64,000 nucleotides of DNA from an uncultured delta proteobacterium (GCA_963833025.1 CAWHWI010000003.1:618338-682337); one strand, 5' to 3'. Counted from the stretch's first letter, positions 8,467 to 56,199 are shown. Numbers and translations: made by a program. Notes: generated from the sequence alone by a model not told the origin.

Positions 8467-8483
8467 CCCGATTCCCCCGCTCC

Positions 8484-8999: not shown

Positions 9000-9012
9000 G
9001 CAGCCGCGCGCG

Positions 9013-9582: not shown

Positions 9583-9588
9583 TAGCCT

Positions 9589-10779: not shown

Positions 10780-10785
10780 CGAGGA

Positions 10786-12411: not shown

Positions 12412-12415
12412 CTGC

Positions 12416-12928: not shown

Positions 12929-12939
12929 AAAGACAAACC

Positions 12940-28958: not shown

Positions 28959-29339
28959 ATGGTTCAGCAGCACACATCGTCCGAGCACCTCAACGCGACT
29001 TTCTCGGCGCTCGCCGATCCCACTCGCCGCGCGATCCTCGCTCGCCTCGCGTCGGGCGAGACTTCCGTGTCCGAGCTGGCCGAGCCCTTCGAGATGAGCA
29101 TGCCCGCCATCTCCAAGCACCTGAAGGTGCTGCAGCGCGCGGGCCTGATCGAACGCGGCCGCGAGGCGCAATGGCGTCCGTGCCGGCTCGCCGCCGGTCC
29201 GCTCAAGGACGCCTCGGACTGGCTCGATCGCTATCGCCGTTTCTGGGAGGAGAGCTTCGATCGCCTCGAGGATTATCTGCGCGAGCTGCAGAAGCGCGAA
29301 TCACAAAAGAAGGAGACCAAAAATGGCCGCAAAAAGTAG
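28959..29339 (+). CDS. ArsR/SmtB family transcriptional regulator
   Basis: FSALADPTRRAILARLASGETSVSELAE...SMPAISKHLKVLQRAGLI wHTH. Confidence 0.85.
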   Translation: MVQQHTSSEHLNATFSALADPTRRAILARLASGETSVSELAEPFEMSMPAISKHLKVLQRAGLIERGREAQWRPCRLAAGPLKDASDWLDRYRRFWEESFDRLEDYLRELQKRESQKKETKNGRKK

Positions 29340-29844
29340 CGCCGCCGCTCAATCCGACTCGCGCGAGCTGGTCGTCACCCGCGTCCTCGACGCGCCGCGC
29401 GCCCTGGTGTGGAAAGCACTCACCGAGCCCGAGCGCCTCGAGCACTGGTGGGGGCCGAAGGGCTTCACTTCAAAGGTCCACAAGCTCGAGCTGCGCCCCG
29501 GCGGCATCTTCCTCTACAGCCAACGCACGCCTGACGGCCGCGAGATGTGGGGCAAATGGGTCTATCGCGAAATCGTCGCGCCCGAGCGGCTGGTGAGCGT
29601 CTCTTCCTTCACCGATGAGAAGGGTAATTCGATCCCGCATCCTTTGATCCCGAACTGGCCGCTGGAGATTCTGGGCGTGTCCACGTTCACCGAGCGTCAG
29701 GGCAAGACCACGATGGTCGTGCGGATGGTCCCGGTAAACGCGACCGAGTCGGAGCGCAAGACTTTCGAAGAACACCTCAATTGGATGGAAGAGGGTTTTG
29801 CCGGAACTCTCGAAAAGCTCGACAAATACCTGGCGTCACTCTGA
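29323..29844 (+). CDS. SRPBCC/AHSA1 (Aha1-like) domain protein, paralog 1
   Basis: RVLDAPRALVWKALTEPERLEHWWGPKGF signature. Confidence 0.8.
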   Translation: MAAKSSAAAQSDSRELVVTRVLDAPRALVWKALTEPERLEHWWGPKGFTSKVHKLELRPGGIFLYSQRTPDGREMWGKWVYREIVAPERLVSVSSFTDEKGNSIPHPLIPNWPLEILGVSTFTERQGKTTMVVRMVPVNATESERKTFEEHLNWMEEGFAGTLEKLDKYLASL

Positions 29845-29878
29845 GGCATCATCACCAACAGGCTGAAGGAGAGCAGCT

Positions 29879-29989
29879 ATGCAACTCAATCCCTATCTGA
29901 ACTTCGATGGCAACTGCGCCGCCGCGTTCAAGTTCGTCGATCAATTCGGCACGCCCTGGATGATCAACTGCGAGGGCGAAGCGCGATGA
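29879..29989 (+). pseudogene. 36-codon remnant of a PhnB/VOC-like gene (N-terminus only), translationally coupled (ATGA) to next gene
   Basis: MQLNPYLNFDGNCAAAFKFVDQFG matches the conserved N-terminus of PhnB-like VOC proteins, then stops. GAAGGAG SD upstream. Confidence 0.5.
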
Positions 29990-30480
29990 CTTCCGCAAGG
30001 CCGACGATATCCGATTCCGCGCCGGAAGATACCTCGGATCGCGAGATCGTCGTCACCCGAGTTTTCGACGCGCCGCGAGCGCTCGTGTTCAAGTTGTGGA
30101 CTGATCCGCAACATGTCGCGCGATGGTGGGGGCCGAATGGCTTTAGCACCACGACTTATGAGATGGACGTGCGGCCGGGCGGCGTGTGGCGCTTCGTCAT
30201 GCACGGACCCGACGGCCGGGATTATCAGAACAAGGTCGCATATGTCGAAATCGCCGAGCCCGAGCGACTGGTTTACAAGCATGTCTCCGGTCCGCAATTT
30301 CAAATGACGGTGACCTTTGCCGACGCCGGCGACAAGACGAGGCTCACGGCGCGGATGCTCTTCGAGTCAGCCACCCTGCGCAACAAGGTCATCGAAGAAT
30401 TCGGGGCCGTCGAGGGACTCAAGCAGACTCTCGGACGCCTCGACGATTATGTGAACCATACTAAGGAGAGCATCCGATGA
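29986..30480 (+). CDS. SRPBCC/AHSA1 domain protein, paralog 2
   Basis: RVFDAPRALVFKLWTDPQHVARWWGPNGF. Confidence 0.8.
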   Translation: MTSARPTISDSAPEDTSDREIVVTRVFDAPRALVFKLWTDPQHVARWWGPNGFSTTTYEMDVRPGGVWRFVMHGPDGRDYQNKVAYVEIAEPERLVYKHVSGPQFQMTVTFADAGDKTRLTARMLFESATLRNKVIEEFGAVEGLKQTLGRLDDYVNHTKESIR

Positions 30481-30929
30481 CTTCAAACACCGAAGTTACA
30501 GTTGGCGATCGCGAGCTCACCATCACGCGCATCTTCGACGCGCCCCGCCCGCTGGTTTTCTTCGCGTGGTCAAGACCCAAACATCTGATGCGTTGGTTCG
30601 CGCCCAACAACTTCACCGTGTCGGAGTGCGAGATGGACTTCCGCGAGGGCGGAAAGTTCCGGCTGTGCATGCGCGGCTTCGGCAAGGACCATTGGATGAA
30701 CGGCGTCTTTCGCGAAATCGTCAAGCCGGAGCGAATCGTCTGGAGCAGCTTGTTGGATAACGACACCAACGAAGTGGTCACGACGGCGACGTTCACCGTT
30801 ATGGGCGGCGGCAAGACCATGCTCACAGTGCATCAGACCTACTCGATCGAAACTGATTCGACCCGCGGTGCACCACAGGGATGGTCCGAAACCCTCGATC
30901 ATCTCGCCGAATTACTGGCGGACGCCTGA
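30477..30929 (+). CDS. SRPBCC/AHSA1 domain protein, paralog 3
   Basis: RIFDAPRPLVFFAWSRPKHLMRWFAP; ATGA overlap with paralog 2. Confidence 0.8.
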   Translation: MTSNTEVTVGDRELTITRIFDAPRPLVFFAWSRPKHLMRWFAPNNFTVSECEMDFREGGKFRLCMRGFGKDHWMNGVFREIVKPERIVWSSLLDNDTNEVVTTATFTVMGGGKTMLTVHQTYSIETDSTRGAPQGWSETLDHLAELLADA

Positions 30930-30954
30930 CGGAATCGACTGAAGGAGAATTATT

Positions 30955-31425
30955 ATGGGAGCAGCAGTTAACCTGGTAAGCGAGCCTGCGGATCGCGTGC
31001 TTAAAATCGAGCGCGTCTTCGACGCGCCGCGCAGTCTCGTCTTCAAAGCCTGGACCGAGCCCGAGCACATCGCGAAATGGTGGGGTCCGCGCGGCTTCAC
31101 CAGCACCGTTCTCAAAAACGATCTGCGCCCGGGCGGCGCCTATCGAATCCACATGCGCGGACCCGACGGCGATCACTGGACGCAGGGCATCTATCGCGAA
31201 GTGGTCCCTCCCGAGCGGCTGGTCATGGTCGGGAGCTGGGCCGATGCGCAGGGCAATCCAACGCGCCCCGAAACGACGCTGACGCTGCTGTTCGAGGATC
31301 TCGGCGGCAAGACCAAGCTCACTCTGCACAACGCGGTCTTCGAATCGGTCACGGCGCGCGATTTGCACCAGGGCGGATGGACCAGCGCGCTCGATTGTCT
31401 CGCCGAATACCTGGCAACTGCCTGA
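30955..31425 (+). CDS. SRPBCC/AHSA1 domain protein, paralog 4
   Basis: RVFDAPRSLVFKAWTEPEHIAKWWGPRGF. Confidence 0.8.
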   Translation: MGAAVNLVSEPADRVLKIERVFDAPRSLVFKAWTEPEHIAKWWGPRGFTSTVLKNDLRPGGAYRIHMRGPDGDHWTQGIYREVVPPERLVMVGSWADAQGNPTRPETTLTLLFEDLGGKTKLTLHNAVFESVTARDLHQGGWTSALDCLAEYLATA

Positions 31426-33214: not shown

Positions 33215-34105
33215 ATGCAAAACCCGCAGGAATACTATAAGAGCGAAGGGCCAATGACAGCTCTGGGAGCGCACGCGGAAGAATTCCGCGCGATGCCCAC
33301 GGACCTCGCCTCGCTATGCGAGGTCGTACAGGGCTTGCTGATTCATCGCGATATTGCGCCATGGCTGTACGGCCTCACGCTGACCGAGGCGCAGCGCGAC
33401 GACGGCAACATCCGCCCGATCGCGAAAATGCTGACGCGCATTCACGAGCTCGATTCGCGCCCGATCACGAGCGCGCGCGACGTCGGCCACCGGCTCCCCA
33501 GCGTATGCCGTCATTTTTCGCTGATGCTCAGCGCCATACTCCGGTATCAGGGCATACCGGCGCGGCCGCGATGCGGCTTCGGCGCCTACTTCACGCCGGG
33601 CAAGTTCGAAGACCATTGGGTGTGCGAGTATTGGAACGCCGGCGAGAAGCGCTGGATATTGGTGGACGCGCAGCTCGACTCGATTCAGCGCAAAGCCTTG
33701 AACATCAATTTCAACCCGCTCGACGTGCCGCGCGACCGCTTCATAATCGCGGGCAACGCGTGGCAGATGTGCCGCACCGGCGCCGCCGATCCCGCCAACT
33801 TCGGGCTCACGCACGTCCACCTGCAGGGGATGTGGTTCATCGCCGGCAACGTGGTCCGCGATCTCGCGTCGCTCAACAAAATGGAACTGCTACCATGGGA
33901 CGTCTGGGGCTTGATGGATATGAACGACGCCGCACTGACCGACGAGAAAAAATCCCTACTCGATCGCGTCGCAACTCTAACCCTCGCGGGCGACAACGCG
34001 TTCCCCGAAGTCCGCGCAATCTACAACGACGATCGCCTCCGCGTCCCACCACTTGTCTTCAACGCACTGCGCAACGCCCCCGAACCAATCGCGAGCGAGA
34101 ACTAA
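33215..34105 (+). CDS. transglutaminase-like cysteine protease domain protein (start may be ATG 33254)
   Basis: CRHFSLMLSAILRYQGIPARPRCGF...HWVCEYW...WILVDAQ, consistent with the Cys-His-Asp transglutaminase core. Confidence 0.72.
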   Translation: MQNPQEYYKSEGPMTALGAHAEEFRAMPTDLASLCEVVQGLLIHRDIAPWLYGLTLTEAQRDDGNIRPIAKMLTRIHELDSRPITSARDVGHRLPSVCRHFSLMLSAILRYQGIPARPRCGFGAYFTPGKFEDHWVCEYWNAGEKRWILVDAQLDSIQRKALNINFNPLDVPRDRFIIAGNAWQMCRTGAADPANFGLTHVHLQGMWFIAGNVVRDLASLNKMELLPWDVWGLMDMNDAALTDEKKSLLDRVATLTLAGDNAFPEVRAIYNDDRLRVPPLVFNALRNAPEPIASEN

Positions 34106-34240: not shown

Positions 34241-35752
34241 TCACCGACCGCCCGCTGCTGGCGCCGGCGCCGCCGGGCGCGACGGCTTTGGCATGTGGAT
34301 GTAGAGCTTGTCCGCCGCCGGACGGCCGTCGGTATGCATCGACGGCGGACGCATCGCGTACTTCACTTCGCGCGCGTGCTCGGCGAACTGCCGATCCGGG
34401 TTGTACACGCTGTTGAACTTCCACAGCATCTTGATGAAGTTGGTCTGCCCCTTCAGCGCGAGCTTGCCCGCGATCGACGCTACCGACTTCAGCGCCGCGA
34501 ACCCAAGATGCTTGCGGTTGAGCACGTCCTGCGTCTTCACCAGCTCCTGGTAGAACTGCAGCAGCGGCAACTTGGTCGGCAGCACCGCGTGCTGGATGTC
34601 GTACAGCCGGTAGTCGAGCGTCGTCAGCTTGCGCGATTCGGTGAACCACAGCTCGGTGCCGGGATACGGCGTCGCCACCGTCAGATGAACGATCTCGGGG
34701 ATGCTGATCGCCCATTCGCGAATCACCTCGAAGCGCTTCACGTCCCACGACGGGTCCGCGATCAGGTTGACCGCGACGGTCAAGCCAATCTCGCGCGCCA
34801 CTTCGAGCGCCTTGAAGTTGACGCCCATCGACGAGCGCTTGCGATGCAGCTTCAGGCCTTCTTCGTCGATCGCTTCGAGGCCCAGGAACATGTACTCCAT
34901 GCCGAGCTTGCGCCAGTAGCGGAACACTTCCGGATTGCGGCACAGTACGTCGGCGCGAGTCTCGAGGTAGTACTGCTTTTTGATTTTGCGCTTTTCGATT
35001 TCGTGCCCGATCGCGAATCCATGCTCCGGATGGATGAACGCGACGTCGTCCACGATGAAGACGTTCGGCTCTTTGATCGACAGCATGTCTTCGGCCGCCG
35101 CTTCCGGCGTCGATTTGCGGTAGCTGCGTCCGTAAAACGTCCACGCGCTGCAGAACGAGCAATCCCACGGGCATCCGCGGGTGAACTCGATCGACGCGCA
35201 CGGATCGAGCACGCCGATAAAATATTTGTTGCGCCGGCGCCCGAGATCGCGCGCGGGAAAAAACTTGTCGAGATCGTCGAGCATGACCGGCGTCGGCCCG
35301 GAGCCTTGCGTCGTCAACACGCCCGGAACTTTGCCAATCGAGCCGGTGCCGATTGCGTCGAGGAGCATCGGGGTCGCCGTCTCGCCCTCGCCGCGGATGA
35401 CCGCGTCGATCGCGCCGTCCGCATGCTCCAGAATTTCGTCGGCGACGAAGGAGCCGCTGTGCCCGCCGGTGAAGACGAAGCAGTCCTTCATCAGGCGCTT
35501 CACGTCCTTGGCGAGATCGATCACCTCGGGCACGTTGGCGAGGTAGTTGAGCGAGAAGCCGACCGCATTGGGCCGGAAGCTCTCGAGCTCGGCAAACAGA
35601 TCACGATGCTTGAAAATCTGCAGGTCGAGGATTCTGACGTCATGGCCGGCCGCGCGCGTGGCCGCCGCCACCCGCTCCATTCCCAGCGGTTCGAGCCGCA
35701 AATAAATCTCGCTGTACATAAGCGGACTTGGATGTACGAATAGGACCCGCAT
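34241..35752 (-). CDS. B12-binding domain radical SAM protein (candidate hopanoid-associated HpnJ-like)
   Basis: N-terminal B12-binding region (VLFVHPSPLMYSEIYLRL) and CxxxCxxC motif FTRGCPWDCSFC. Lies near hpn genes. Confidence 0.78.
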   Translation of the reverse strand: MRVLFVHPSPLMYSEIYLRLEPLGMERVAAATRAAGHDVRILDLQIFKHRDLFAELESFRPNAVGFSLNYLANVPEVIDLAKDVKRLMKDCFVFTGGHSGSFVADEILEHADGAIDAVIRGEGETATPMLLDAIGTGSIGKVPGVLTTQGSGPTPVMLDDLDKFFPARDLGRRRNKYFIGVLDPCASIEFTRGCPWDCSFCSAWTFYGRSYRKSTPEAAAEDMLSIKEPNVFIVDDVAFIHPEHGFAIGHEIEKRKIKKQYYLETRADVLCRNPEVFRYWRKLGMEYMFLGLEAIDEEGLKLHRKRSSMGVNFKALEVAREIGLTVAVNLIADPSWDVKRFEVIREWAISIPEIVHLTVATPYPGTELWFTESRKLTTLDYRLYDIQHAVLPTKLPLLQFYQELVKTQDVLNRKHLGFAALKSVASIAGKLALKGQTNFIKMLWKFNSVYNPDRQFAEHAREVKYAMRPPSMHTDGRPAADKLYIHMPKPSRPAAPAPAAGGR

Positions 35753-38009: not shown

Positions 38010-38720
38010 CTACGAGCGGTCGAGCTTTGCGCGCAGGCGCGAGGCCAGATCTGGCGCGGAGGTTTCGTGTTTGAAATAGACGAAGATTTCATCAGCGCTC
38101 GACGCGAGACGATCGAGATTCTTCACCCATTCGTCGAGGCCCGCGTCGTCGTAGGTTTCTTTGCGCAGGCGGACGTAGACGTATGGCGCGGTTCGCTCGA
38201 GTGGCGACGCGAGCTTTTCTGTTTCCGCGATGCAAAGCGCGACGCTATGGTCTGCGAGCGCGGTCATGACGGAGTCGTCGAACCAGCTTCGATTTCTGAA
38301 TTCGAATGCTGCGCGGACCCTGCCCTTCACAATCGCGAGAAAGTCGCGCAGCAGCGGGAGATCGAGTTTCAAGTCGGGCGGGAGCTGGAACAGTGCGGGC
38401 GCGAGCCGCTCGCCCATGACCGACGCGCGCTCGATGAACGTGTCGGTGGTCTCTTTGACGTCGCGCAGCTTGGCGAAGTGCGTGATGCGCTGCGGGGCCT
38501 TGAGCGCGAAGCGAAAATTCGCCGGCGTACGCGCGGCCCATCCTTCCAGCATCGCGCTCTTCGGCATCGCGCGGAACGTGTAGTTGATCTCGACCGTCGG
38601 CATCCGCTCGGCGTAGTACTCGAGCATTTTGGCGCCGGGGAGTTTCTCCGGATAAAAGCCCCCAAGCCATTCCTTGTACGAAAAGCCCGAGGTGCCGATC
38701 AGGATGTCCGCCTTCGCCAT
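38010..38720 (-). CDS. DUF72 (YecE-like) domain protein
   Basis: ILIGTSGFSYKEWLGGFYP...ALFQLPP DUF72 signature. Confidence 0.8.
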   Translation of the reverse strand: MAKADILIGTSGFSYKEWLGGFYPEKLPGAKMLEYYAERMPTVEINYTFRAMPKSAMLEGWAARTPANFRFALKAPQRITHFAKLRDVKETTDTFIERASVMGERLAPALFQLPPDLKLDLPLLRDFLAIVKGRVRAAFEFRNRSWFDDSVMTALADHSVALCIAETEKLASPLERTAPYVYVRLRKETYDDAGLDEWVKNLDRLASSADEIFVYFKHETSAPDLASRLRAKLDRS

Positions 38721-38766: not shown

Positions 38767-39939
38767 CTATTGGCTGCGTCCCTCGACCAGTTTGCGCAGG
38801 CGCTCAGCGCCTTCCTTCGCGACCTGCTCCTGCTCCGGGTTGCTCCCAGAGCCATCGAGGTCGAGCAAGTCATAATACAGCCTGCCTTGCAGCTTCGCGA
38901 CTTCGTTGACGAAGGTCGTGCCGTAATCGCGCTCCGGATCGCCCATCGCAAACGCCTGCCGCGTGATCGTCCAGCTCTCGGGGCGCAGTTGCCGCGCGCG
39001 CTTGAAGTATGGCACCGCGTCCGGCGCGTGACCGGTCTCGCACAGATACTCCGCCAGCCTGAAGTACGCGGCGGCTTGCGCATGCTCGCGGGTCGGCAGT
39101 TTGAGCTTGCGTTTCACCTCGCCGGGCTTCATCACGAAGCGGCTGTTCGCGCCGAGCTTCGCCCAATCTCGAAGCGCGTCGAGATATCGCGCCGAATCGA
39201 GACCGGTGATCGCGCGGAAGGTGTCGAGCGCGTACGCGACTTCGTTGGGCCGCACGATCGCTCCCGATTCATCGATCCACACGGCGGTCGGCACGTTGAC
39301 CATGTTGTAGAGTTCGGCGACGACGTGCCGGGTGTCGATCAACGAAGGATGCGCCGGCTTGCCGGCCTTGATGAACGGGCCTGCCGCGGCGGCGCCGCCG
39401 GTGTCGAGCGCGACCGTGACAATCGTGAAGTTGAGATCCTTGAGTTCTTCGTACAGCGCCTGCCACCCGGGCAGGTCAAGGGAGCATCCTCACCAGGACG
39501 CCCATGCCAGTAAAAGGACTTTCTTGCCGCGGTAGTCCGACAGGCGATGCAGTTTGCCTTCAAGGTCGGGCAATTGAAAATCAGGAGCTTCGAGCGAGCC
39601 CAGCGCGTTGTCGCGCTCGGCGGCGTCGGCGCCGAAGTACCATACGCGATTCTTTTGGTCGCCGGCCCACGGCTTGCCCATCTGGTCGGCGAGCGCGGTG
39701 AAGTTGAGCCACGCCGCGCCGTCATGCTTCGAGGAGAATTGGTTCTCGCGTCCCGGCGGAATCGGCACGCACAAATCGCCGCGGCAGATTCCCTCCGGCT
39801 TGAGCTCCCATTCCGCGAGCTTTTTCAGTTCCGCCGCGTCGAGCCACAACGCATTCGAGTCCGCGATCGCGCGCTCGAAATGCAGCGGCTTGTCGTCGTG
39901 AATGATCGTGGCGGCGCCCGGCGTTGATTCAGTTGTCAT
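38767..39939 (-). CDS. thioredoxin-fold (redoxin/TlpA-like) protein with in-frame TGA at 39490-39492 in the active-site position; candidate selenoprotein, or split pseudogene
   Basis: Upstream part ends ...DYRGKKVLLLAWASW-TGA. The same frame continues GCSLDLPGWQALYEEL...VPTAVWIDESG (Trx-fold cis-Pro region) to the stop at 38767. GGGAGGA SD before ATG 39939. Confidence 0.6.
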
Positions 39940-39956: not shown

Positions 39957-42524
39957 TCATCCCTTCAGCGTGGCCTGCAGATTTTTGCCTTCGCGTTTGC
40001 GGAATCCGACCGCGACGCTCAGCCGCTCGAGGTGTTGATCGATTATCTTGCCGCCGAGACGCACGCGATGCTCGACGAAGAACTTCTTGACCTCGTCCTC
40101 GCGATCGAGCAGCGCGACAACCGCTTCGCACATCCGCGGCAGCGCGTTGTCGGGATACTTTTGAATCATCTCGTCCCAATGCGCGCGCGCAAAATCCCAC
40201 GCTTCGTAGCGGCTCGCGGGATTGAGCAGCAGCGAATGCATCAGGTACGGCGCGTTTTGCGTCCGCACCTGCCCGTCGAGCGTCATCTCCATGGTTTTTT
40301 TCAGCAGTTCGCGATCGCGGAAATTCGCCAGCGCGAACAGGTAGCGCTGCTCTTCCTGCGGCGTGCGCGGCGCTTTGAACTTTCGCTTGAACTCCTCGTA
40401 ACGCGCGGCGTCGCCCGAGTGCGCGAGGATATTTACCAGCGGCGGCACTAAATCACGATCCGCGGACTCGGGATTGTCCTCGAAGCGCGCGTACAGATCG
40501 CGTGCACGCTTCTGCACCTCGGGATCGTCGCCGAGCGTGCCGAGCGCGCCGATGAGCGTGCCACGCAGTTGGCGCACAAGCTCGCTCTCGCCGGGCTTTG
40601 GCTCCCAGCCGAGACGCGCGGCGGCGGGACCGACACTCTCGCGCACGGTTGCAGCGAGCGCGGGCCGGTCGCCGTCGGACGCGATCATGTCGAGGTATGC
40701 GAACGCACCGATCAAGGCGCGCCACACGTTGATGTCGGTTTCGTTGGTGAACAACCGCGCCATCTTGAGGAACTCGCTGAGCGGGCCCAGACCCGCGACG
40801 GTCGCCGACCACGTATCGCTCACCAGCCCGAACCGCTCGATCGGTTGCAGCGCGCCAAGGTTCTTCGTAATCGCCGCGAGCAACTGCGGCGCGTAGTGCA
40901 CGCGATAGAATCCGTGGCCGCCCTCGTTCAGCAGCGCCCATTCGAGCTTGCCCGGGATATCGACGGTCGTCTCTTTCGTGGTGAGCAGCACCTTGTGGGT
41001 CGCGACGCCCTTGTCCGTCTTCGCGCGAACCATCACGGGCACATGCCAAAGCTGATTGTTGTCCTCGACGAGATAGAAGAAGCGTCGCTGAGAAAGTTTC
41101 AGTCCGCGGCCGTCGGGGGCTGGCGACGCGTCGATGATCGGGAAGCCGGGCTGGAAAATCCACGAGTCCATCATCTTGCGCACGGGCTCGCGCGACGCCG
41201 CCTCGAGCGCGTCCCACAGGTCGCCGGTCTCGGTGTTGCTGAACTGATGCTTCTTGAGGTAAAGGCGAATGCCGTCGCGAAAAATGTCGGCGCCAAGGAA
41301 CTGCTCGAGCATCCGCAACACGGCCGCGCCCTTCTCGTAGGTCAGGATGTCGAACATCGCGCGGCAATCCTCGGGACTGCGCACCTCGTATTCGATCGGG
41401 CGCGTGCTGCGCAGTCCGTCGATCGCCATCGCGGCCGCGCGCGAGACGCTGAAGCTCTCCCATCGCTTCCACTCCGGCTTCCACGCGTCGACCGCGAGCA
41501 TTTCCATGAAGGTGGCGAACGCCTCGTTGAGCCAGATGCCGTTCCACCATCGCATCGTGACGAGATCGCCGAACCACATGTGCGCGTTCTCGTGCGAGAC
41601 GACGTCGGCGACGCGCTCGAGCTCGGCGCGCGACGCGGATTTTTCGTCGGCAAGCAGCGCGGTCTCGCGAAAAGTAATCGCGCCGAGATTTTCCATCGCG
41701 CCCGATGCGAAGTCGGGAATCGCGATCAGGTCGAGCTTGTCGCCGGGATACTTGAGGCCGTAGTAGCCGGCGAAATATTTGAGCGAGAACGCGCCGATCT
41801 GCTTCGCCCAACTGGTCAGCGACTCCTTGTCGGGAACGTGAACGATGCGCAGCGGCGTGCCCGCATCGACCGGCGCGGTCGCATCGAACTCGCCGACGAT
41901 GAACGCGACGAGGTAGGTGGACATCGCGATCGTCTCCTTGAAGACGACCTCCTTCTTGCCGCCGGCCAGCTTGCGCTCGCTCTCCTGTCCGCCATTGGAA
42001 ATCGCGGTCAGGCCCTCATCGACGACGAGGGTCACTTTGTAACTCGCCTTGAGCTCGGGCTCGTCCCAACACGGAAACGCGCGGCGCGCGTCGGTGGATT
42101 CGAACTGCGTCGTCGCAGCGACATGCGTGTTGCCGGAAGCGTCGTGGTACTGGCTGCGATAAAAGCCGTGCAGCTTGTCGTTCAGGATTCCGCGAAATGC
42201 AATCTTCAGCGTCCATTCGCCCGGCGAAAGTTTCCCGGCGAATCGCAGATGCGCGCGTTCCCTGGCCGCTTCCATCTCGGCCTTCGCGGTGAGCGATTTT
42301 CCGCCGCGCTCCGCGGTGACCTGGTCGATTTCCAGCTCGAGCGCGTTCAGCACGACGTCGTCGGTCGCTTCGTTGACGACGACGGCGATATTCACTTCGC
42401 CTTGAAACGTGAACGCCTTGAGATCGGGCGTAAGGCGAATGTCGTAGCGCCTGGGCGTGACGTTTTTCGGCAGGCGATAGTCCTGCGACGTATCGGCGAG
42501 GGGAGCTCCATCCTGATCGAGCAT
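39957..42524 (-). CDS. pepN: aminopeptidase N (M1 family metallopeptidase)
   Basis: GAMEN exopeptidase motif and HENAHMW(x18)E zinc-binding motif (HExxH-x18-E). Confidence 0.92.
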   Translation of the reverse strand: MLDQDGAPLADTSQDYRLPKNVTPRRYDIRLTPDLKAFTFQGEVNIAVVVNEATDDVVLNALELEIDQVTAERGGKSLTAKAEMEAARERAHLRFAGKLSPGEWTLKIAFRGILNDKLHGFYRSQYHDASGNTHVAATTQFESTDARRAFPCWDEPELKASYKVTLVVDEGLTAISNGGQESERKLAGGKKEVVFKETIAMSTYLVAFIVGEFDATAPVDAGTPLRIVHVPDKESLTSWAKQIGAFSLKYFAGYYGLKYPGDKLDLIAIPDFASGAMENLGAITFRETALLADEKSASRAELERVADVVSHENAHMWFGDLVTMRWWNGIWLNEAFATFMEMLAVDAWKPEWKRWESFSVSRAAAMAIDGLRSTRPIEYEVRSPEDCRAMFDILTYEKGAAVLRMLEQFLGADIFRDGIRLYLKKHQFSNTETGDLWDALEAASREPVRKMMDSWIFQPGFPIIDASPAPDGRGLKLSQRRFFYLVEDNNQLWHVPVMVRAKTDKGVATHKVLLTTKETTVDIPGKLEWALLNEGGHGFYRVHYAPQLLAAITKNLGALQPIERFGLVSDTWSATVAGLGPLSEFLKMARLFTNETDINVWRALIGAFAYLDMIASDGDRPALAATVRESVGPAAARLGWEPKPGESELVRQLRGTLIGALGTLGDDPEVQKRARDLYARFEDNPESADRDLVPPLVNILAHSGDAARYEEFKRKFKAPRTPQEEQRYLFALANFRDRELLKKTMEMTLDGQVRTQNAPYLMHSLLLNPASRYEAWDFARAHWDEMIQKYPDNALPRMCEAVVALLDREDEVKKFFVEHRVRLGGKIIDQHLERLSVAVGFRKREGKNLQATLKG

Positions 42525-47746: not shown

Positions 47747-49111
47747 CTATTCGGCGGCCCGCGCGATTACGGCGGCGGCTGCGGCCCGTCCCGAAATCAC
47801 CGCGCTCTCAATCGTCGCCGGCAGCCCGGTCTGTATCCAGTCGCCGGCCAAAAAGAAATTCGCAATCGGCGTTTTCGCCATTGGACGCAGCTCATGCGAT
47901 CGAAGGTCTGGCGCCATCGTCGCGTTTTTCTCCTTCAGCACCAGCGACTTGACGACCTTCGCCGCGCGCGATACTGGAATCATCGCGTGGAGATCGTTTA
48001 TAACGATATCGAGGATCTCCTGGTTGCTGCGATCGACCAGCTTCCGCGCGCCGCTGATCACGAAGCTCAAGTAGCCCGGATGCGCCTCGCCGCGCTGCGC
48101 GAATATCTGACGTTTGTTGAATAGCCACTGAGTAGTGGTGCCGATAAACCCGATGAACGGTGAATTAGTCACTTCGCGATCGAGCCAGACGTGGACGCAG
48201 ATGATCGGCGAGCTCGAAAGACCTGTAAAGCGCGAGAAGAATGGATCTGCGACCGCGTTCTCGGGCAGAAACCGGAGCAGCTGAGGCGCCGGGACCGCGC
48301 TGATGAAGTCCGACGCCTCGATTCGCCGCCCGTCGCGAAGCCGCACGCTTTCGACCTGGCCCCGCTCGCCAACTTCCAGCATCTCGACGATCGAATGCGT
48401 CGCCACCGTCCCGCCGGCGCGCTCGACCAGCCGCTTCGCGCCCGTGCAGTACAAGTCGGTGAGGCCGACGCGGGAGTAAACGAACGCCGAGTCGCGGCGG
48501 CGCGAAAAAAACGCGCGCTTCAGGACTTCGGCCAATAGCTGCGCCGACGACAATTCCGGCTCGTCGTTCAGCGTCGCGATCGACATCGGGTACCAGAAGC
48601 ACCGGCGCGCGTGTTCCGACTGCCCGAGGCGATCCATCAGTTGCGCAACGGTCATAGTGCGGAGTTCGCCGCCGCCAAACCGTCTCATCGTGAGCATGCG
48701 AAGGCCGCCGCGCATAACGGAGATTCGCTCCGCGACACTCAGATGCCGGTAGCCGAGCAACGCCGCCGTCATGTGCAGCGGCCCTGGCAGCCGCGCCGTT
48801 TTCAGAGTCGCGCTCTGTCCGGGACCTGCGAGCATTTCGATCTCCAAATCCTCGTGAAACACCAACTGGTCGTACGCACCGATCCGCTTGAGGAAGTCGA
48901 GCGTCTCGCCGTAACAGCCCATCAGGACGTGCTGTCCGTTGTCGACGAAATCGCCGGTGTCCGCATCGGCGAACGAATACGCGCGCCCGCCGAGCGCCGG
49001 TTTTCCCTCGAGCACCGTGACCCGCATGCCGCGCTCCGCCAGCGCGACCGCGGCGCTGAGCCCGGCGAACCCGGCGCCGATCACGACCGTGTCTTTGATT
49101 ACGCGCGCCAT
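47747..49111 (-). CDS. hpnE: hydroxysqualene dehydroxylase (FAD-dependent amine-oxidase fold)
   Basis: VVIGAGFAGLSAAVALAERGMRVTVLEGKPALGGRA FAD dinucleotide-binding motif; adjacent to the two squalene-synthase-like genes. Confidence 0.8.
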   Translation of the reverse strand: MARVIKDTVVIGAGFAGLSAAVALAERGMRVTVLEGKPALGGRAYSFADADTGDFVDNGQHVLMGCYGETLDFLKRIGAYDQLVFHEDLEIEMLAGPGQSATLKTARLPGPLHMTAALLGYRHLSVAERISVMRGGLRMLTMRRFGGGELRTMTVAQLMDRLGQSEHARRCFWYPMSIATLNDEPELSSAQLLAEVLKRAFFSRRRDSAFVYSRVGLTDLYCTGAKRLVERAGGTVATHSIVEMLEVGERGQVESVRLRDGRRIEASDFISAVPAPQLLRFLPENAVADPFFSRFTGLSSSPIICVHVWLDREVTNSPFIGFIGTTTQWLFNKRQIFAQRGEAHPGYLSFVISGARKLVDRSNQEILDIVINDLHAMIPVSRAAKVVKSLVLKEKNATMAPDLRSHELRPMAKTPIANFFLAGDWIQTGLPATIESAVISGRAAAAAVIARAAE

Positions 49112-50035
49112 TTATCCGCGCAGCGAGCCGAAGCGGCCCACCGCCCACGCCCGGCCGACCAGGTAAAGCTTGTGCGGCGCGGAGAGGCTGTGGCGGCGGT
49201 CGAGCACGCGATAATTCGACTTGACGATTCGTCCGAGCAACGCGGCGTAGATCAGCCGCATCGCCTCCGCGGTCAACAGCGTCGCGCGATCTTCCGGCGC
49301 CAGCGCGCGCCGCGCCGCCGCGTAGAGTTCCTGCGCGCGTCGCGCCTCGAAGTCCATCAGGTTGACGAAGTTCGGCGTGTACACGCCGCCGATGATTTCC
49401 TCCTCGCTCACGTTAAATCGCGCGAGGTCTTCGAGCGGAAGATAAATTCGCCCGCGCGCCGCGTCCTCTCGCACGTCGCGAATAATATTCGTCAACTGAA
49501 GCGCGAGCCCGAGGTTCTCCGCGTAGGACTTCGCCGACGGATTGCGGTAGCCGAAAATCTCGATGCAGATGAGGCCGAGCGCCGACGCAACGCGATAGCA
49601 GTACGGCCGCAGCTCTTCCCAGCTTTGGTAGCGGTTGCGCGAGAGATCCATCTCCACGCCGTTGATGATTTCCTCGAACAGCTCCCGCGGAATGTTGAAT
49701 CGCCGCGCGCTATCGGTGAGCGCGCGTGAGAGAGCACGTGTCGGCGCGCCCGCATACACCCGGTCGAGTTCCTCGCGCCACCGCTTGAGCTGCAGCGCCG
49801 GCTCGCGAATCGATTCGTCGTCGGCGATATCGTCGATGAAGCGGCAGAATGCATAAACGGCGTGGAGCGCGCGGCGCCGTTCGGGCGGTAGCAGGATGAA
49901 CGCGTAGTAAAAGCTCGACCGCGAGCGCCGCGTGATTTCCGCGCAGCGTTCATAGTCGGCTTCGAGCGACGTGCCGTCGCGCCCGGCCGCTTGCTCGACG
50001 CCGGCGTCGCCGCCGTCAGACTTCAAGTCGTCCAC
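49112..50035 (-). CDS. hpnD: squalene/phytoene synthase family enzyme, presqualene diphosphate synthase-like
   Basis: YAFCRFIDDIADD and second Asp-rich motif region; HpnD assigned by gene order. Confidence 0.72.
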   Translation of the reverse strand: MDDLKSDGGDAGVEQAAGRDGTSLEADYERCAEITRRSRSSFYYAFILLPPERRRALHAVYAFCRFIDDIADDESIREPALQLKRWREELDRVYAGAPTRALSRALTDSARRFNIPRELFEEIINGVEMDLSRNRYQSWEELRPYCYRVASALGLICIEIFGYRNPSAKSYAENLGLALQLTNIIRDVREDAARGRIYLPLEDLARFNVSEEEIIGGVYTPNFVNLMDFEARRAQELYAAARRALAPEDRATLLTAEAMRLIYAALLGRIVKSNYRVLDRRHSLSAPHKLYLVGRAWAVGRFGSLRG

Positions 50036-50942
50036 GAATCGCGCTCCATCCGAGTTTCAGGTAGTCGAGTTTCGCTAATTCCGGACGCATCCGGAACACG
50101 TCGTAGTTGACGCGATCGATCGCGCGCAATATCGCCAGCCCGCCGCCCGCGAACATCACGATGTCGCGCCGCAGCCGCTTGTCGACGCGCTTGTGCAATT
50201 CTCCGCCCTCGACCAGCATCGCGCGCGCGACTCCCACCTCATGACGCATCAACTCCACGAATTCGCGCGACGACGTATGCGCCGCCAGATCGGCCGGCGT
50301 CACACCGAATCGTTCCATGTCGCGCCGCGGAAAATAAATTCTCCCCTTGTCGAGATCGACCGCAACGTCCTGCCAGAAATTGGCGAGCTGCAGGCCGCTG
50401 CAGACCAGATCCGACAGATGCTGCCGTTCGGGGTCGCGGTAGCCGAACAAATAAAGCACCAGCCGACCGACCGGGTTCGCCGAGTAGCGCGAATAGCCGA
50501 GCAGAGCTTCGAGCGTGTCGAAGCCCTTGAAATCCACGTCAGATCGAAACGCCGTCAGCAGGTCCTTGAACGGCTCGCGCGGAATATCAAAGCGGCGCAC
50601 CGTATCCGCCAGCGCGATAAACACCGGATGGCGCGGCGTGCCGGCGTACGCCAAATCGAGCTCGCGCTCCCATTGGTCGAGCATCTCGCGGTCATGATGC
50701 TCGTCGGCAAAGTCGTCGGCCATCCTCGCGTACGCATAAATCGCATACATGTGCGGGCGCATCTCGCGCGGCATCAGCCACGACGCGACGGTGAAATTTT
50801 CGTAGTGCGACTTCGCCAGCCGCGCGCAAAATTCGTACGCGCTCGCAACGTCGAACGTTCCCGGCGGCATCGACGCGTCACGCACCGCGCTCGATGTGTA
50901 CGACGCTGCTCCGCCCTGCACGTTGGCCCGCGCGCTTGCCAT
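50016..50942 (-). CDS. hpnC: squalene/phytoene synthase family enzyme, hydroxysqualene synthase-like
   Basis: HYENFTVAS...YARMADDFADE motifs; first of the SQS-like pair. Confidence 0.72.
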   Translation of the reverse strand: MASARANVQGGAASYTSSAVRDASMPPGTFDVASAYEFCARLAKSHYENFTVASWLMPREMRPHMYAIYAYARMADDFADEHHDREMLDQWERELDLAYAGTPRHPVFIALADTVRRFDIPREPFKDLLTAFRSDVDFKGFDTLEALLGYSRYSANPVGRLVLYLFGYRDPERQHLSDLVCSGLQLANFWQDVAVDLDKGRIYFPRRDMERFGVTPADLAAHTSSREFVELMRHEVGVARAMLVEGGELHKRVDKRLRRDIVMFAGGGLAILRAIDRVNYDVFRMRPELAKLDYLKLGWSAIRGRLEV

Positions 50943-50946
50943 CGTC

Positions 50947-52116
50947 TCAGGCTGCGACCGGTCGCGCTCCGATAAGTTCGCGCGCGGTGGCTCGCGCCCA
51001 TCCGTCGGTTTCGAGCAGATCTTCGATTGTTCGCGCCGCGGGATTGTGATGCCGATTCATCACCGTCTCGATATGACGCGGGATGTCCACGAATCGCACG
51101 CGCCCGGCCAGAAAACTCGCCACCAGTTCCTCGTTGGCGGCGTTGAGGCACGCGGTCATCGTGTTCCCCGCCGCCAGCGCCTCGTACGCGAGCCGCAGAC
51201 ACGGGAAGCGCCGCAGGTCGGGCTCCTCGAATGTCAGCCGCGAATTTTCCGCGAGCGAGAGCGGCTTCAGATGCGTCATCGGCAGCCGCTCCGGGTACGC
51301 CAGCGCGTACGCGACCGGAATCGCCATGTCGGGAATCGCCATCTCCGCGATCACCGAGCCGTCGATCATTTCCACCATCGAATGGATCACGCTCTGCGGA
51401 TGGATCACCACCGAGACTTCGCCCGCCTTGAGATCGAACAGCCAGCGCGCCTCGATCACCTCGAGCCCCTTGTTCATCAGCGTCGCGGAATCGATCGTAA
51501 TCTTGCTGCCCATCACCCAGGTTGGATGCTTCAGCGCTTGCTCGACCGTGATCGATTCGAAGCTATCGGTCGGCAGCTCGCGGAACGGCCCGCCCGACGC
51601 GGTCAGAATGATCCGCTTCATCGACTCGCGCCCGCGTCCTTCCAGGCATTGAAAAATCGCGTTGTGCTCGCTGTCCACCGGCAGCAGCCGCACTCGATTC
51701 TCGCGCACCGCCGCCGTGATCAGCTCGCCCGCAATCACCAGCACTTCCTTGTTGGCGAACGCGATGTCCTTGCCGGCCTTGATCGCGGCAAGCGTCGGCT
51801 GCAGGCCCATCGCACCGACCAGCGCCGACATCACCAGCTTCGCCTCGGGATGCGTCGCCACCGCGATCGCGCCGTCGAGTCCGTGCACAATCGTCACGCG
51901 CTGCGCACCGAGACGCGTCGCGAGTTCGCGCGCGAGTTCGGGCGTCGCGACCGACACGAGTTCGGGATGAAAGCGCTTCACTTGCTCAGTCAGCAGATCG
52001 AGGTTGCGTCCCGCCGCCATCGCGACCACGCGAAATCGATCGCTGAATCGGCCGGCCACGTCCAGCGTCGTGACGCCGACCGATCCGGTTGAGCCGAGAA
52101 TTGAAATCGCTTTCAT
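50947..52116 (-). CDS. dxr: 1-deoxy-D-xylulose 5-phosphate reductoisomerase
   Basis: ISILGSTGSVGVTTLDV...LLPVDSEHNAIFQCL signature. Confidence 0.92.
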   Translation of the reverse strand: MKAISILGSTGSVGVTTLDVAGRFSDRFRVVAMAAGRNLDLLTEQVKRFHPELVSVATPELARELATRLGAQRVTIVHGLDGAIAVATHPEAKLVMSALVGAMGLQPTLAAIKAGKDIAFANKEVLVIAGELITAAVRENRVRLLPVDSEHNAIFQCLEGRGRESMKRIILTASGGPFRELPTDSFESITVEQALKHPTWVMGSKITIDSATLMNKGLEVIEARWLFDLKAGEVSVVIHPQSVIHSMVEMIDGSVIAEMAIPDMAIPVAYALAYPERLPMTHLKPLSLAENSRLTFEEPDLRRFPCLRLAYEALAAGNTMTACLNAANEELVASFLAGRVRFVDIPRHIETVMNRHHNPAARTIEDLLETDGWARATARELIGARPVAA

Positions 52117-52126
52117 CGCGACTCGC

Positions 52127-54085
52127 TCAATGTGCCGCCGTCTCCGCCAGCCTCCGACGGAACCGCCCGAGCGCCATCAGCGGAAAGTAATGCGGGTACA
52201 TGTGGTAGCGAAGATAAAAATGATTCGGAAACCCGTTGCCGGTCGATTCTCTTTCGTCCCACGCGCCCTCGTCGTTCTGCCGCTCTGAGAGCCACTGCGC
52301 GCCGCGCATCGCAGGTTCGGTGATCTCCGACTCGCCCGCGATCAATCCGATTAGCGCCCACGCCGTTTGCGACGCGGTGCTGGTCCCGCGTCCGTGCCAC
52401 GCCGGATCTTTGTCCGACAGCGGGCTCTCGCCCCAGCCGCCGTCGGGATTCTGCTTCGACTTGAGCCACGCGACCGCACGCTTGATCCACGGCTCGTTGA
52501 TATCGACGCCGATCGCGCACAGCCCCGCCAGCGCCGAGTACGTACCGTAAATATAGTTGATACCCCAGCGTCCCCACCATCCACCCGCCGGCGATTGATT
52601 TTTCTTGAGCCAGTCGATCGCGTTCTTCGCCACCGGATGGTTGCTGCGGTAGCCGACCGAGGCCATCATCTCGAGCACATGGCCCGTGAGATCGGGGCAC
52701 GACGGATCAGTCACCGCTTCGACGTCCGCCAGCGGCAGATGATTGAGCCAGGTTGAATTGTTGTCGGCATCGAATGCCGCGAAGCCGCCGTCCTTCGACT
52801 GCATTCCCATCACCCAGTTCGCGCCGGCGCGGATCGCGCGTTCCCTCGCCGCGGCATCGTCGGCTTTCGAGTCCGCCATCACCGACAGGATCACCGCCGA
52901 ATCGTCCACGTCAGGATAGCAATCGTTGTAAAACTCGAACGCCCATCCGCCCGGCTCGAGCGCGGGCCGTTTCACCGACCAATCTCCCTTCTTGAAAATC
53001 TGATGATCGATCAGCCATTGCGACGTGTGCTTGAGCGCCGGGTGGTCGCCAGGCAATCCCGAGTCCAGCAACGCCCGTCCCGCCAGCGCCGTGTCCCAGT
53101 TGACCGACACGCACGGCATGTACATGTCGTTGTCGCTGAAATGCCAAATCAGTTCGTGCGATGCCTCGATCGCTTTCTTCAGCACCGGATGGTCGTTGCG
53201 GTAGCCGTTGGCTTTCAGAGCCATCGCGCTCAGCAGGTAGCACGGCTCGATTCCACCCCATGAGCCGTTGGCCTCCTGATGCTCGAGGAGCCAGTTTTCC
53301 GTGCGCCGCAGCGCACGTGCGCGCAAGGATTTGATTTGGTGCCGATCGTAAAGGCGCAGCGCCTTGTCGGCGAAATTGAGCGCGTTGCGCAGCGACAGCA
53401 ATTGTTTTCCGCGCGGCTGTTTGAACTTCGTGAAATGCGGCGGCTCGATGTACAGCTCGAGCACTCCCCGCTGGTAGTCGATTTTTTTCTCGGGACGCGC
53501 CGCCTGCAGCATCATCAGTCCCATCATTGTCCCGCGCGCCCACGATCCCAGCTCGTAAATATTGAACGGGAACCAGTTCGGAAAGAGCGCCAGCTCTACC
53601 GGCAGCGCGGCCGTCGCATCCCACGTTATCTGCCCCATCGACGCGAGGTAAAAGCGCGCGAGCGTCCCGCAGTTGACGATGCCGCCCTTCGACAGAATCC
53701 AGCGGCGCGCAGCCGCCAGCGGCTCGTCACCAGCGCGCATGCCGGTGAGCTTCAGCGCAAAATAACTTTCGATGGTCGTCGACAGATACCCTTCGCCGCC
53801 CTGGTAGAGCGCCCAACTCCCGTCCGGACTCTGCGTGTCCAGCAGATACTTCTTCAGCCGCGCTTCGAGCTCGACGTCAACCGTGTCCATGAAATGGTTG
53901 AAGATGATGAACTCCGCGTTCATCTCCGCATTCGCCTCGAGCGGCGCGTGCCAGTAGCCCTCGGGCTTCTGCAGCGCCAGCAGCGCGCGCTGGGCGCGAT
54001 CGACGGTGTAGTCAATCTTCGCGACGAACTCGTCATGCGGCGACATCGCAATCGCCGTGTTTCCAATTTCAATTGCCTGGCTCAT
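52127..54085 (-). CDS. shc: squalene-hopene cyclase
   Basis: 652 aa with multiple QW motifs (e.g. QNPDGGWGE, QSPDGSW) and DxDDTA-type active site region (DVDDSAV). Confidence 0.95.
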   Translation of the reverse strand: MSQAIEIGNTAIAMSPHDEFVAKIDYTVDRAQRALLALQKPEGYWHAPLEANAEMNAEFIIFNHFMDTVDVELEARLKKYLLDTQSPDGSWALYQGGEGYLSTTIESYFALKLTGMRAGDEPLAAARRWILSKGGIVNCGTLARFYLASMGQITWDATAALPVELALFPNWFPFNIYELGSWARGTMMGLMMLQAARPEKKIDYQRGVLELYIEPPHFTKFKQPRGKQLLSLRNALNFADKALRLYDRHQIKSLRARALRRTENWLLEHQEANGSWGGIEPCYLLSAMALKANGYRNDHPVLKKAIEASHELIWHFSDNDMYMPCVSVNWDTALAGRALLDSGLPGDHPALKHTSQWLIDHQIFKKGDWSVKRPALEPGGWAFEFYNDCYPDVDDSAVILSVMADSKADDAAARERAIRAGANWVMGMQSKDGGFAAFDADNNSTWLNHLPLADVEAVTDPSCPDLTGHVLEMMASVGYRSNHPVAKNAIDWLKKNQSPAGGWWGRWGINYIYGTYSALAGLCAIGVDINEPWIKRAVAWLKSKQNPDGGWGESPLSDKDPAWHGRGTSTASQTAWALIGLIAGESEITEPAMRGAQWLSERQNDEGAWDERESTGNGFPNHFYLRYHMYPHYFPLMALGRFRRRLAETAAH

Positions 54086-54138
54086 CTTTCACCCTTGCTT
54101 CGACTTAAGCCCACCCGTGAGCGCTCGCCGCGACCCGC

Positions 54139-55206
54139 TTACGGAATCACGGCGCATTTCAGAACTACTCCACGTTCGAGCATCTCAAACACTTCGGTCA
54201 GATCGTCAAGCCGCATTCGCGCGTTGACGATCGCGCCGGCATTCAGCGCACGCCCCGCCAGCAACTCGTAAGCGCGCCGCACGTCGCGCGGCCGAAAGTG
54301 AAACGGCGCCATCAACGTCAGATTGTCGTAATGCATCCGGCGTGTATCGACGCTGAGCGCAGTGCCTTCCGGACAGCCGCCGAAAAATACCACCCGCCCT
54401 CCGCGACGCACCCGCGCCAGCGCATCCTGCCATCCCTCGACTTGCCCCGTGCACTCGATCACCATGTCGGGGCCGAAGCCGCCGTTGAGCCGCGCGATTT
54501 CTGCGGCCGCATCGACGCTCCGCGCGTCGACGACGCGGTCCGCGCCCAAATCCTGCGCCCACTTCAGCCGCTCGGCGCCGCGCCCCACGACCGTCACCTC
54601 GCGCACGCCGGCCGCCTTCAGCACCAGCATGTGCAACAGGCCGAACGCGCCGCCGCCGATTATCGCCACCGTCTCGTGTTTGTCGGGACGTGCCATCTCC
54701 TGCGCGTACACCACGCACGAGAGCGGCTCGAGCAGCGCCGCTTCCTCGAACGGCAGATCCCCGGGTTTGATAAACGTGTTGCGCGCGACGACGTGCGCCG
54801 GCAACAGCAGCATGTCCGCGTACCCGCCATGCACCATTCGCCCGACCGCGTCGTCGCAAAGATTTTCCTGGCCATGCTGGCAGTAAAAACAGATTCCGCA
54901 CGGCGCAGTCGGCGCCGCCATGATTTCGTCGCCGGCCTTGAACGCCGTCACGCCCTCGCCCGCTTCGACCACGACGCCGGAAAACTCATGCCCGAATGGC
55001 ATCGGAAGTTTCCACATCGGATGTCCGCGCCGAAAGGTTTTCAGATCGGTGCCGCAACTCAATGTGCAGCGAATTTGAATCAGCAATTCGCCAGGCCCCG
55101 GATGCGGCGCGACGTAATCGCGCAACTCGAGGCGTCCCGGCTCGACCAGCACGGCCTGGCGCGAACGCGCGCCCGCTATTTCCGCCGCCGCTTCGAACGC
55201 GCTCAC
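54139..55206 (-). CDS. zinc-binding alcohol dehydrogenase (MDR family); GTG start overlapping ispA stop (GTGA)
   Basis: CGTDLKTFRRGHP...GHEFSGVVVEAGEGV zinc motif; GGGAFG Rossmann. Confidence 0.8.
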   Translation of the reverse strand: MSAFEAAAEIAGARSRQAVLVEPGRLELRDYVAPHPGPGELLIQIRCTLSCGTDLKTFRRGHPMWKLPMPFGHEFSGVVVEAGEGVTAFKAGDEIMAAPTAPCGICFYCQHGQENLCDDAVGRMVHGGYADMLLLPAHVVARNTFIKPGDLPFEEAALLEPLSCVVYAQEMARPDKHETVAIIGGGAFGLLHMLVLKAAGVREVTVVGRGAERLKWAQDLGADRVVDARSVDAAAEIARLNGGFGPDMVIECTGQVEGWQDALARVRRGGRVVFFGGCPEGTALSVDTRRMHYDNLTLMAPFHFRPRDVRRAYELLAGRALNAGAIVNARMRLDDLTEVFEMLERGVVLKCAVIP

Positions 55207-56180: not shown

Positions 56181-56199
56181 GGGTTATCCGCTCGATTTC

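Follow-up and report, generated by a model that had tools for sequence, protein, structure and literature searches.

A gene with an in-frame TGA from an uncultured delta proteobacterium is predicted to encode a selenoprotein of the WAxxUGC family

Introduction

TlpA of Bradyrhizobium, ResA of Bacillus subtilis and the CcmG/DsbE proteins are periplasmic or extracytoplasmic thiol-disulfide reductases, which act in the maturation of cytochrome oxidase and cytochrome c. A family of selenoproteins with a similar fold and the motif WAxxUGC is already known, being curated by NCBI as NF041054 ('ResA-like WAxxUGC motif-containing protein', WAxxUGC_long, an equivalog) and listed as a selenoprotein in a review (PMC13188914). 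A set named 'Prx-like (UGC-containing)' was described in 2008, assigned to pfam00578 and having the motif UGC, with 46 selenocysteine (Sec) sequences and 855 Cys homologs, and was more abundant in non-marine samples (PMC2398784). Our literature search found nothing relevant under the names WAxxUGC or NF041054, or on selenocysteine in Binatia, and no test of biochemical function or substrate for any member of the WAxxUGC family.

The bacterial SECIS model of Zhang and Gladyshev, in the outline that PMC13188914 gives of it, has a loop of 3-9 nt on a stem of 4-16 bp, with a G in the first two loop positions that is usually followed by G or U, a distance of 16-37 nt from the UGA to the loop, and a minimum free energy of -7.5 kcal/mol or lower.

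Here we describe a gene at 38767-39939 (minus strand) of a stretch of 64,000 nucleotides from an uncultured delta proteobacterium, the whole of which was analysed and is called the window below. We conclude with high confidence that this is one intact gene, coding for a 390-residue selenoprotein of the curated WAxxUGC (long) family of TlpA/ResA-like thiol-disulfide oxidoreductases.

Results

Reading frame and in-frame TGA

The frame runs on the minus strand from an ATG at 39939 to a TAG at 38769-38767 and has 390 codons. It contains a single internal stop, a TGA at 39492-39490, in the context LLLAWASW-TGA-GCSLDLPGWQ. There are 149 residues before the TGA, ending ...RGKKVLLLAWASW, and 240 after it, starting GCSLDLPGWQALYEELKDLNFTIVTVAL. 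The initial annotation had claimed an in-frame TGA with read-through for 240 residues to a stop at 38767, and both the coordinates and the frame were reproduced. Codons 1-149 (39493-39939) code for an N-terminal domain and the start of the redoxin domain, and end with WASW. The UGA itself (39490-39492) is the predicted Sec codon, U150 of WASW-U-G-C, a prediction based on the conservation of the TGA, the Cys of homologs and the NCBIfam score described below. Codons 151-390, with the TAG (38767-39489), supply Cys152 and complete the thioredoxin fold, after which comes a helical domain at the C-terminus. The motif W-A-S-W-TGA-G-C as a whole spans 39504-39484.

The start at 39939 is supported by a Shine-Dalgarno-like GGGAGGA, read from the sequence at 39953-39947 (minus strand), 7 nt 5' of the ATG and 8 nt from it when counted from the GGAGG core. 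A further ATG in the same frame, at 39960, shares bases with the stop codon of the gene before it, and is missing from close relatives.

Within the 64 kb window this is the sole non-trivial TGA to be flanked, before and after, by a strong coding signal in one and the same frame (GC3 >0.72), other such TGAs having been set aside as two adjacent genes or as an antisense frame. Elsewhere TGA is an ordinary stop: it ends 35 of the 65 candidate genes listed in the window, including ones confirmed by Pfam. An alternative genetic code, with UGA as a sense codon throughout the genome, is therefore ruled out, because most genes of the window end in this codon.

Family, fold and active site

Pfam and NCBIfam searches were run on the read-through protein with Cys in place of Sec. 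In this form the protein scores 323.9 bits against NF041054, above the cutoff of 300 (E 1.4e-96). It has the W-A-x-x-U-G-C motif of that family, with the in-frame UGA as U, and its 390 residues in three domains agree with the long architecture (about 350-400 aa, three domains). The central domain is matched by Pfam PF00578 (Redoxin/AhpC-TSA; 61.1 against a threshold of 26) over residues 117-230, at 39250-39591 on the minus strand, and the match spans the UGA. This domain shows the TlpA/ResA type of thioredoxin fold, with its cis-Pro loop, NVPTAVWID, in the part after the UGA.

The predicted model of a homolog has three confidently folded regions, with helices across residues 260-366 at pLDDT >90; Pfam gives a weak TPR_2 match at residues 289-321. 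The N-terminal domain, to which no named fold was assigned, carries a conserved pair of cysteines, C52 and C57 (KPEGICRGDLCVP, 39786-39769), in a motif G-x-C-x4-C(-x-P) that shows no variation among 46 Cys-form homologs.

Among solved structures, the sequence matches are ResA, TlpA, Etrx and related proteins. It had been proposed that the TGA replaces the N-terminal Cys of the active site, leaving an unusual UxC spacing. The alignment to solved structures agrees with this: the UGA falls on the N-terminal Cys of CxxC, the resolving Cys is Cys152, and the spacing of the redox positions is one residue shorter than usual, so that a one-residue gap is needed (WASWCG-C, compared with WASWCSIC and WATWCPPC). 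The UxC spacing is also the defining motif of the WAxxUGC family.

The Pfam match to AhpC-TSA might suggest a peroxiredoxin. This was rejected because the signature PxxxTxxC(U) is absent: in LLAWASW, which precedes the U, position -3 is not Thr and position -7 is not Pro. The NCBIfam scores for PrxQ and Bcp are also far below their cutoffs.

Sec and Cys forms of the gene

Homologs with Cys at the position of the UGA are abundant. The full-length ones, among the matches listed, are 302-431 aa long, are 38-51% identical to the read-through product and cover 83-94% of it. The sequence WASWCGC is found in 74 of the 88 full-length homologs listed, and a close variant in a further 12 (CSC, CAC, CQC, or a change in the first or fourth residue of the motif); of the other two, one has Trp where the first Cys would be, and the second was not scorable. 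In the DNA of the Cys forms, the homologous codon is TGC or TGT.

The Sec forms were collected from two scans. In a scan of genomes, with one genome per species, 389 relatives were found, and the best 80 loci of these all read WASW-TGA-GGN-TGY, with tandem paralogs at two loci. They come from Binatia (including Candidatus Binatus), from Blastocatellia, Terriglobia and Vicinamibacteria (Acidobacteriota), from Methylomirabilota/Rokubacteria, from Gemmataceae and Isosphaera (Planctomycetota) and from Verrucomicrobiia (Verrucomicrobiota). In a scan of metagenomes, the best 80 loci among the matches listed were again all TGA forms. Near-identical genes are already present in public Binatia genomes: the Binatia loci (L001-L021) are mostly 88-98% identical to the window protein over the half after the UGA, a closeness that places the source of the window in this group. 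Genome loci, metagenome loci and the window together give 163 copies, which have 153 distinct sequences over the 60 nt after the UGA. The homologous codon is TGA in 163 of 163, from at least five phyla.

The question posed at the outset, whether Cys or Sec aligns at this position, is thus answered on both sides, with WASWCGC in the Cys homologs and TGA in every close copy of the gene. A UGA conserved in orthologs, with Cys in other homologs, is the pattern by which a bacterial selenoprotein is recognised. The TGA almost certainly encodes Sec in the active site of a TlpA/ResA-like protein.

A conserved hairpin after the UGA

The hairpin CCUGCC-CGGGU-GGCAGG lies at 39459-39475 on the minus strand. 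It has a stem of 6 bp (39475-39470 paired with 39464-39459) and a loop CGGGU (39469-39465). With the U of the UGA as nt 1, it covers nt 18-34, where the codons specify D-L-P-G-W-Q-A. Its free energy on its own is -9.3 kcal/mol, and its pair probabilities are at least 0.98 in a 60-nt context. The initial annotation had described it as starting 14 nt after the UGA with a geometry comparable to that of a bacterial SECIS element. The 14-nt spacer is correct, and the 5-nt loop, the 6 bp, the 20 nt between UGA and loop and the free energy all agree with the published model. A stem extended outward beyond 6 bp was considered and dropped, the extra pairings not being conserved. Rfam gave no match in the whole window at the gathering threshold, or in 39380-39540 at E<=10; SECIS elements of this type have no Rfam model.

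The loop is N-G-[G/U]-N-U in all 153 distinct sequences, and the six pairs are all intact in 148 of them. In an alignment of 83 sequences (A2), 99.4% of the cells are paired, and none of 500 shuffles equalled the observed covariation score. Two of the pairs vary in a compensating manner. The first base of the stem Leu codon and the third base of the Gln codon are CG in 77 sequences, UA in 70, UG in 5 and CA in 1; the third base of the Asp codon and the initial base of the codon that follows Gln are CG in 95, UA in 46 and UG in 8, with 4 mismatches (153 sequences in each case). Since a shared GC bias could mimic covariation, all variable sites were compared: phi for the paired sites is 0.92 and 0.84, and for other pairs of variable sites it is at most 0.55, a background that reflects a partial correlation through GC content in sequences that are related and not independent. 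The neighbouring sites 18/19 and 33/34 are almost uncorrelated.

One explanation that has to be weighed is that the hairpin is a by-product of the conserved peptide DLPGWQ, and that Sec insertion, if it takes place, uses another element. Four central pairs do follow from the codons for Leu (xUG), Pro (CC), Trp (GG) and Gln (CA), so that the independent evidence at the RNA level consists of the two outer pairs and the restriction in codon use. The region is also thermodynamically unexceptional: a 66-nt segment shows no excess stability over dinucleotide shuffles (z = 0.44), and the evidence is therefore that of conservation and covariation, rather than stability alone. This evidence nevertheless points the other way. 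The covariation of the two outer pairs is far above the background, and the stem Leu is encoded by CUG or UUG only (153 of 153), whereas all six codons are found for the Leu two positions before it. Inside the loop, synonymous sites vary freely. The Cys forms provide a control, in a small sample of 8 distinct genes that code for the same peptide and were obtained by exact-protein look-ups: all six pairs are kept in three of these 8, compared with 148 of 153 for the Sec forms (Fisher 1.5e-5), and one of the 8 uses CUC for the stem Leu. The constraint on the hairpin is relaxed in the Cys forms, and the covariation signal is much weaker there. Moreover, the peptide DLP[GV]WQ is itself far more constrained in the Sec forms (162 of 163) than in the Cys forms (28 of 86), and no alternative conserved helix was found within 60 nt after the UGA. 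We consider it very improbable that the hairpin merely follows from the peptide.

The Sec machinery and other ways to read the UGA

ARAGORN and tblastn (with E. coli SelA, SelB and SelD) were run on the window and on 171 related loci, and Pfam on about 50 genes of the window. No selA, selB, selD or tRNA-Sec was found within the window's 64 kb or in the sequence flanking the 171 loci, and ARAGORN found no tRNA gene of any kind in the window. The ability of the organism to make Sec is assumed here.

The UGA could in principle be recoded as something other than Sec, either by a selC* opal-suppressor tRNA(Cys) or by near-cognate read-through as Trp or Cys. The selC* tRNA(Cys) species, which resemble tRNA-Sec and may suppress opal codons, are described from anaerobic Firmicutes, Thermodesulfobacteria, Nitrospirae and Proteobacteria (PMC5389517). 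Some deltaproteobacteria are among these, and the genomes closest to the window carry the label 'uncultured delta proteobacterium'. Against this, PMC5389517 does not report selC* in Binatia or Acidobacteriota, the 64 kb window contains no tRNA, the WAxxUGC family is curated as a Sec family, and the conserved hairpin of SECIS type fits the SelB model. Recoding to an amino acid other than Sec is, in our view, extremely improbable.

One gene rather than two

It was anticipated that a gene caller would split a gene of this kind, and public protein sets do hold the products of such splits. They contain fragments of 214-220 aa, 52-87% identical, that begin at (M/L)DLPGWQ right after the UGA or slightly later, and that carry the name 'hypothetical protein' or 'TPR repeat protein'; each is what lies beyond the UGA in a Sec form that a gene caller has split. 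In the window too, the ORF listing gives 38767-39342 as a separate ORF. Such entries might be taken at face value, as a 149-residue protein ending at the TGA and a separate 'TPR protein' of about 190-235 residues downstream. An N-terminal fragment may indeed arise by termination at the UGA when selenium is limiting, and a truncated product of 149 residues would be expected under low selenium. However, the split would cut through the active site of the thioredoxin fold, within the Pfam domain that spans the TGA, and the Cys homologs run as single chains over nearly the whole of the read-through product. The downstream starts that have been called differ from locus to locus (ATG, CTG or TTG, at different codons), as is typical of artefactual starts.

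In addition, a recognisable N-terminal half and a recognisable C-terminal half (58-93% and 73-98% identical, respectively, within Binatia) meet at the TGA, in the same frame, in 171 of 171 related loci, which effectively rules out an error of sequencing, a pseudogene or a pair of unrelated genes. An arrangement of two genes is barely credible on this evidence. As to a pseudogene or an error of sequencing or assembly (a change from TGC to TGA in a Cys-type gene for a TlpA-like protein, or a miscalled TGA), a single base separates the two codons and Cys-form homologs exist at 40-51% identity, but its probability is close to nil, given the same TGA in independent assemblies from several phyla, a hairpin that covaries specifically in TGA forms, and relatives in which no accumulating frameshifts or stops were seen; judged from these comparisons, it is very unlikely that the true sequence has TGC at this position.

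Neighbouring genes and the signal-less branch

The gene lies between a gene for an M1 aminopeptidase (39957-42524, with its stop at 39959-39957), which sits 17 nt upstream, and a DUF72 gene (38010-38720) downstream, all three on the minus strand. This order is conserved in Binatia, and the aminopeptidase is also found upstream in loci from Methylomirabilota and Vicinamibacteria.

No hydrophobic signal segment was found in the window protein, which has a polar N-terminus and a maximum 19-residue hydropathy of 1.29. It differs in this from most of the Sec forms examined, since 110 of the 163 have a signal-like N-terminal segment by a crude hydropathy test; by the same test, the Binatia clade and the Methylomirabilota loci have none. 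In 17 acidobacterial loci, mostly from Blastocatellia, the gene comes directly after, and on the same strand as, those for subunits I, III and IV of cytochrome c oxidase. This linkage is consistent with the exported forms acting, like TlpA, in the maturation of the oxidase. The window copy has neither a signal peptide nor the oxidase linkage, and its location is therefore probably cytoplasmic.

It is worth adding a more speculative reading, that the window copy belongs to a distinct cytoplasmic sub-branch (Binatia with the Methylomirabilota and Vicinamibacteria loci) which has lost the signal peptide and has the M1 aminopeptidase upstream, in a family that is otherwise exported. We regard this as rather unlikely. 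If it were true, and if the C-x4-C pair worked together with U-G-C (as an internal relay, or in the handling of metal or selenium), the function of the branch could differ from oxidase maturation of the TlpA type.

Discussion

Proposed mechanism

For the 390-residue selenoprotein that we favour, the following mechanism is proposed. The UGA at 39492-39490 would be read as Sec, with the hairpin downstream acting as a bacterial SECIS element. By analogy with the established bacterial mechanism, the hairpin would recruit SelB with GTP and Sec-tRNA(Sec), in competition with release factor 2. In the folded protein, Sec150 would be the nucleophile, at the position of the N-terminal Cys of CxxC, with Cys152 as its partner one residue away. 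Thioredoxin-fold chemistry suggests that a reversible Sec150-Cys152 selenenylsulfide would reduce or isomerise disulfides, or related oxidised sulfur species, in a partner protein. The C52-x4-C57 pair is a candidate for a second redox or relay site, and the TPR-like helical domain at the C-terminus is a candidate surface for binding the partner.

Significance

Every element of the selenoprotein reading given in the initial annotation that could be checked was upheld, and the family had already been curated as a selenoprotein family (NF041054, PMC13188914). The gene itself adds little to what is known, the equivalog being available at NCBI and the family being present in catalogues of selenoproteomes. 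It is of practical use for annotation: in many public protein sets such genes are split at the UGA and their second half is called TPR or hypothetical, which hides a selenoprotein that seems to be very common in soil bacteria, the best 80 metagenome loci among the matches listed being all Sec forms. Of specialist interest are the clean covariation of the SECIS hairpin, for which the Cys forms act as a control, and the link to cytochrome oxidase genes in Blastocatellia together with the loss of the signal peptide in Binatia. These points leave the classification unchanged.

Comparison with known systems

The hairpin resembles the bacterial SECIS model, of which E. coli fdhF and fdnG are the prototypes, in its site within the coding region just 3' of the UGA and in having a small apical loop whose second base is G and whose third is G or U. 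It has no sequence similarity to the fdhF and fdnG elements, and conservation gives no support here for a bulged U or an extended lower stem.

As in the Trx-like, Prx-like and DsbA-like selenoproteins (UxxC, CxxU, TxxU), a Sec, predicted in the present case, replaces a redox-active Cys in a thioredoxin fold, and Cys-form orthologs occur in other genomes. The spacing here is UxC and not UxxC.

The protein would be expected to work like an oxidoreductase of the TlpA/ResA type, yet it falls outside those families on several of the points that define membership. Its predicted Sec-containing active site is U-G-C in place of C-x-x-C, and one residue shorter. It has about 390 residues, compared with about 140-220 aa for TlpA, ResA and CcmG/DsbE, and has two extra domains. 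Neither a membrane anchor nor a signal peptide is present, and no cox or ccm genes lie next to its gene. Its NCBIfam scores are below the cutoffs for ResA (69.6 against 170), TlpA (46.6 against 230) and DsbE (21.7 against 123), and also far below that for StoA.

With the 'Prx-like (UGC)' set of 2008, which may be the same long form, it has the UGC motif in common. The closest match is with NF041054, from which it differs in no family-defining feature: it has the same motif with UGA at the first redox position, the same TlpA/ResA-like fold, the same additional domains, N-terminal and C-terminal helical, and the same abundance of homologs in the Cys form.

Database annotation of the family

The WAxxUGC family (NF041054) is systematically mis-annotated in public protein sets. 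The halves of the Sec forms that follow the UGA are stored there as standalone proteins of 214-220 aa (the short entries among P0004, P0007 and P0067-P0120 of our protein search), and these carry the names 'tetratricopeptide (TPR) repeat protein' or 'hypothetical protein'.

Tandem copies of the Sec-form gene are found in two Candidatus Angelobacter genomes, with the TGA at 1704 and 2998 in one locus (L044) and at 1627 and 2998 in the other (L061). In each genome the in-frame TGA is present in both paralogs, and the SECIS-type hairpin that follows it is intact in both.

Other genes in the window

Two gene clusters lie on the minus strand. The NADH:quinone oxidoreductase (nuo) operon (3001-13332) has Pfam matches for subunits A, B, C, H, I, J, L, M and N, and contains two gaps, at 10780-11901 and 8137-8483, in which no gene passed the ORF filter; these presumably hold nuoD and nuoK, missed by the filter. 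The hopanoid/squalene biosynthesis cluster (47747-57204) comprises two SQS_PSY genes, an amine-oxidase-type (HpnE-like) gene, DXP reductoisomerase, squalene-hopene cyclase, polyprenyl synthase and a radical SAM gene with DUF3463 (HpnH-like), with a TetR regulator beside it at 57238-57948.

On the plus strand, 28959-31425 contains an ArsR-family regulator and, after it, a tandem array of four AHSA1/SRPBCC-domain paralogs (29323-29844, 29986-30480, 30477-30929 and 30955-31425). A B12-binding radical SAM enzyme gene (34241-35752, minus strand) is close to a transglutaminase-like gene (33215-34105). Two ORFs with good coding statistics, at 18376-19386 (plus strand, 336 aa) and 62799-63620 (minus strand, 273 aa), had no Pfam match at E<=1e-5.

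Genomic neighbourhood and N-terminal segment

For the Cys-form homologs, a GFO_IDH_MocA-family oxidoreductase gene is adjacent or close by in three independent planctomycete-like contexts (L163 6091-7167; L165 4301-5407 and L166 2484-3590; L171 1945-2881).

The N-terminal part of the window protein, encoded before the TGA (39493-39939, minus strand), was compared with those of related loci (for example L026:2497-2997, L036 and L068). By a crude hydropathy test, 110 of the 163 Sec forms have a signal-peptide-like N-terminal segment, and none was detected in the window protein, in any of the Binatia relatives or in the Methylomirabilota-type loci. An M1 aminopeptidase gene lies immediately upstream in these signal-less loci.

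In 17 acidobacterial loci, mostly Blastocatellia, the genes immediately upstream of the Sec-form gene on the same strand encode COX1, COX3 and COX4_pro (Pfam; cytochrome c oxidase subunits I, III and IV), the TGA being at about 2998 (L022, L024, L026-L028, L032-L034, L037, L038, L047, L052, L056, L062, L073, L088 and L106). The placement of these exported Sec forms directly after cox genes suggests that they take part in oxidase biogenesis in the manner of TlpA.
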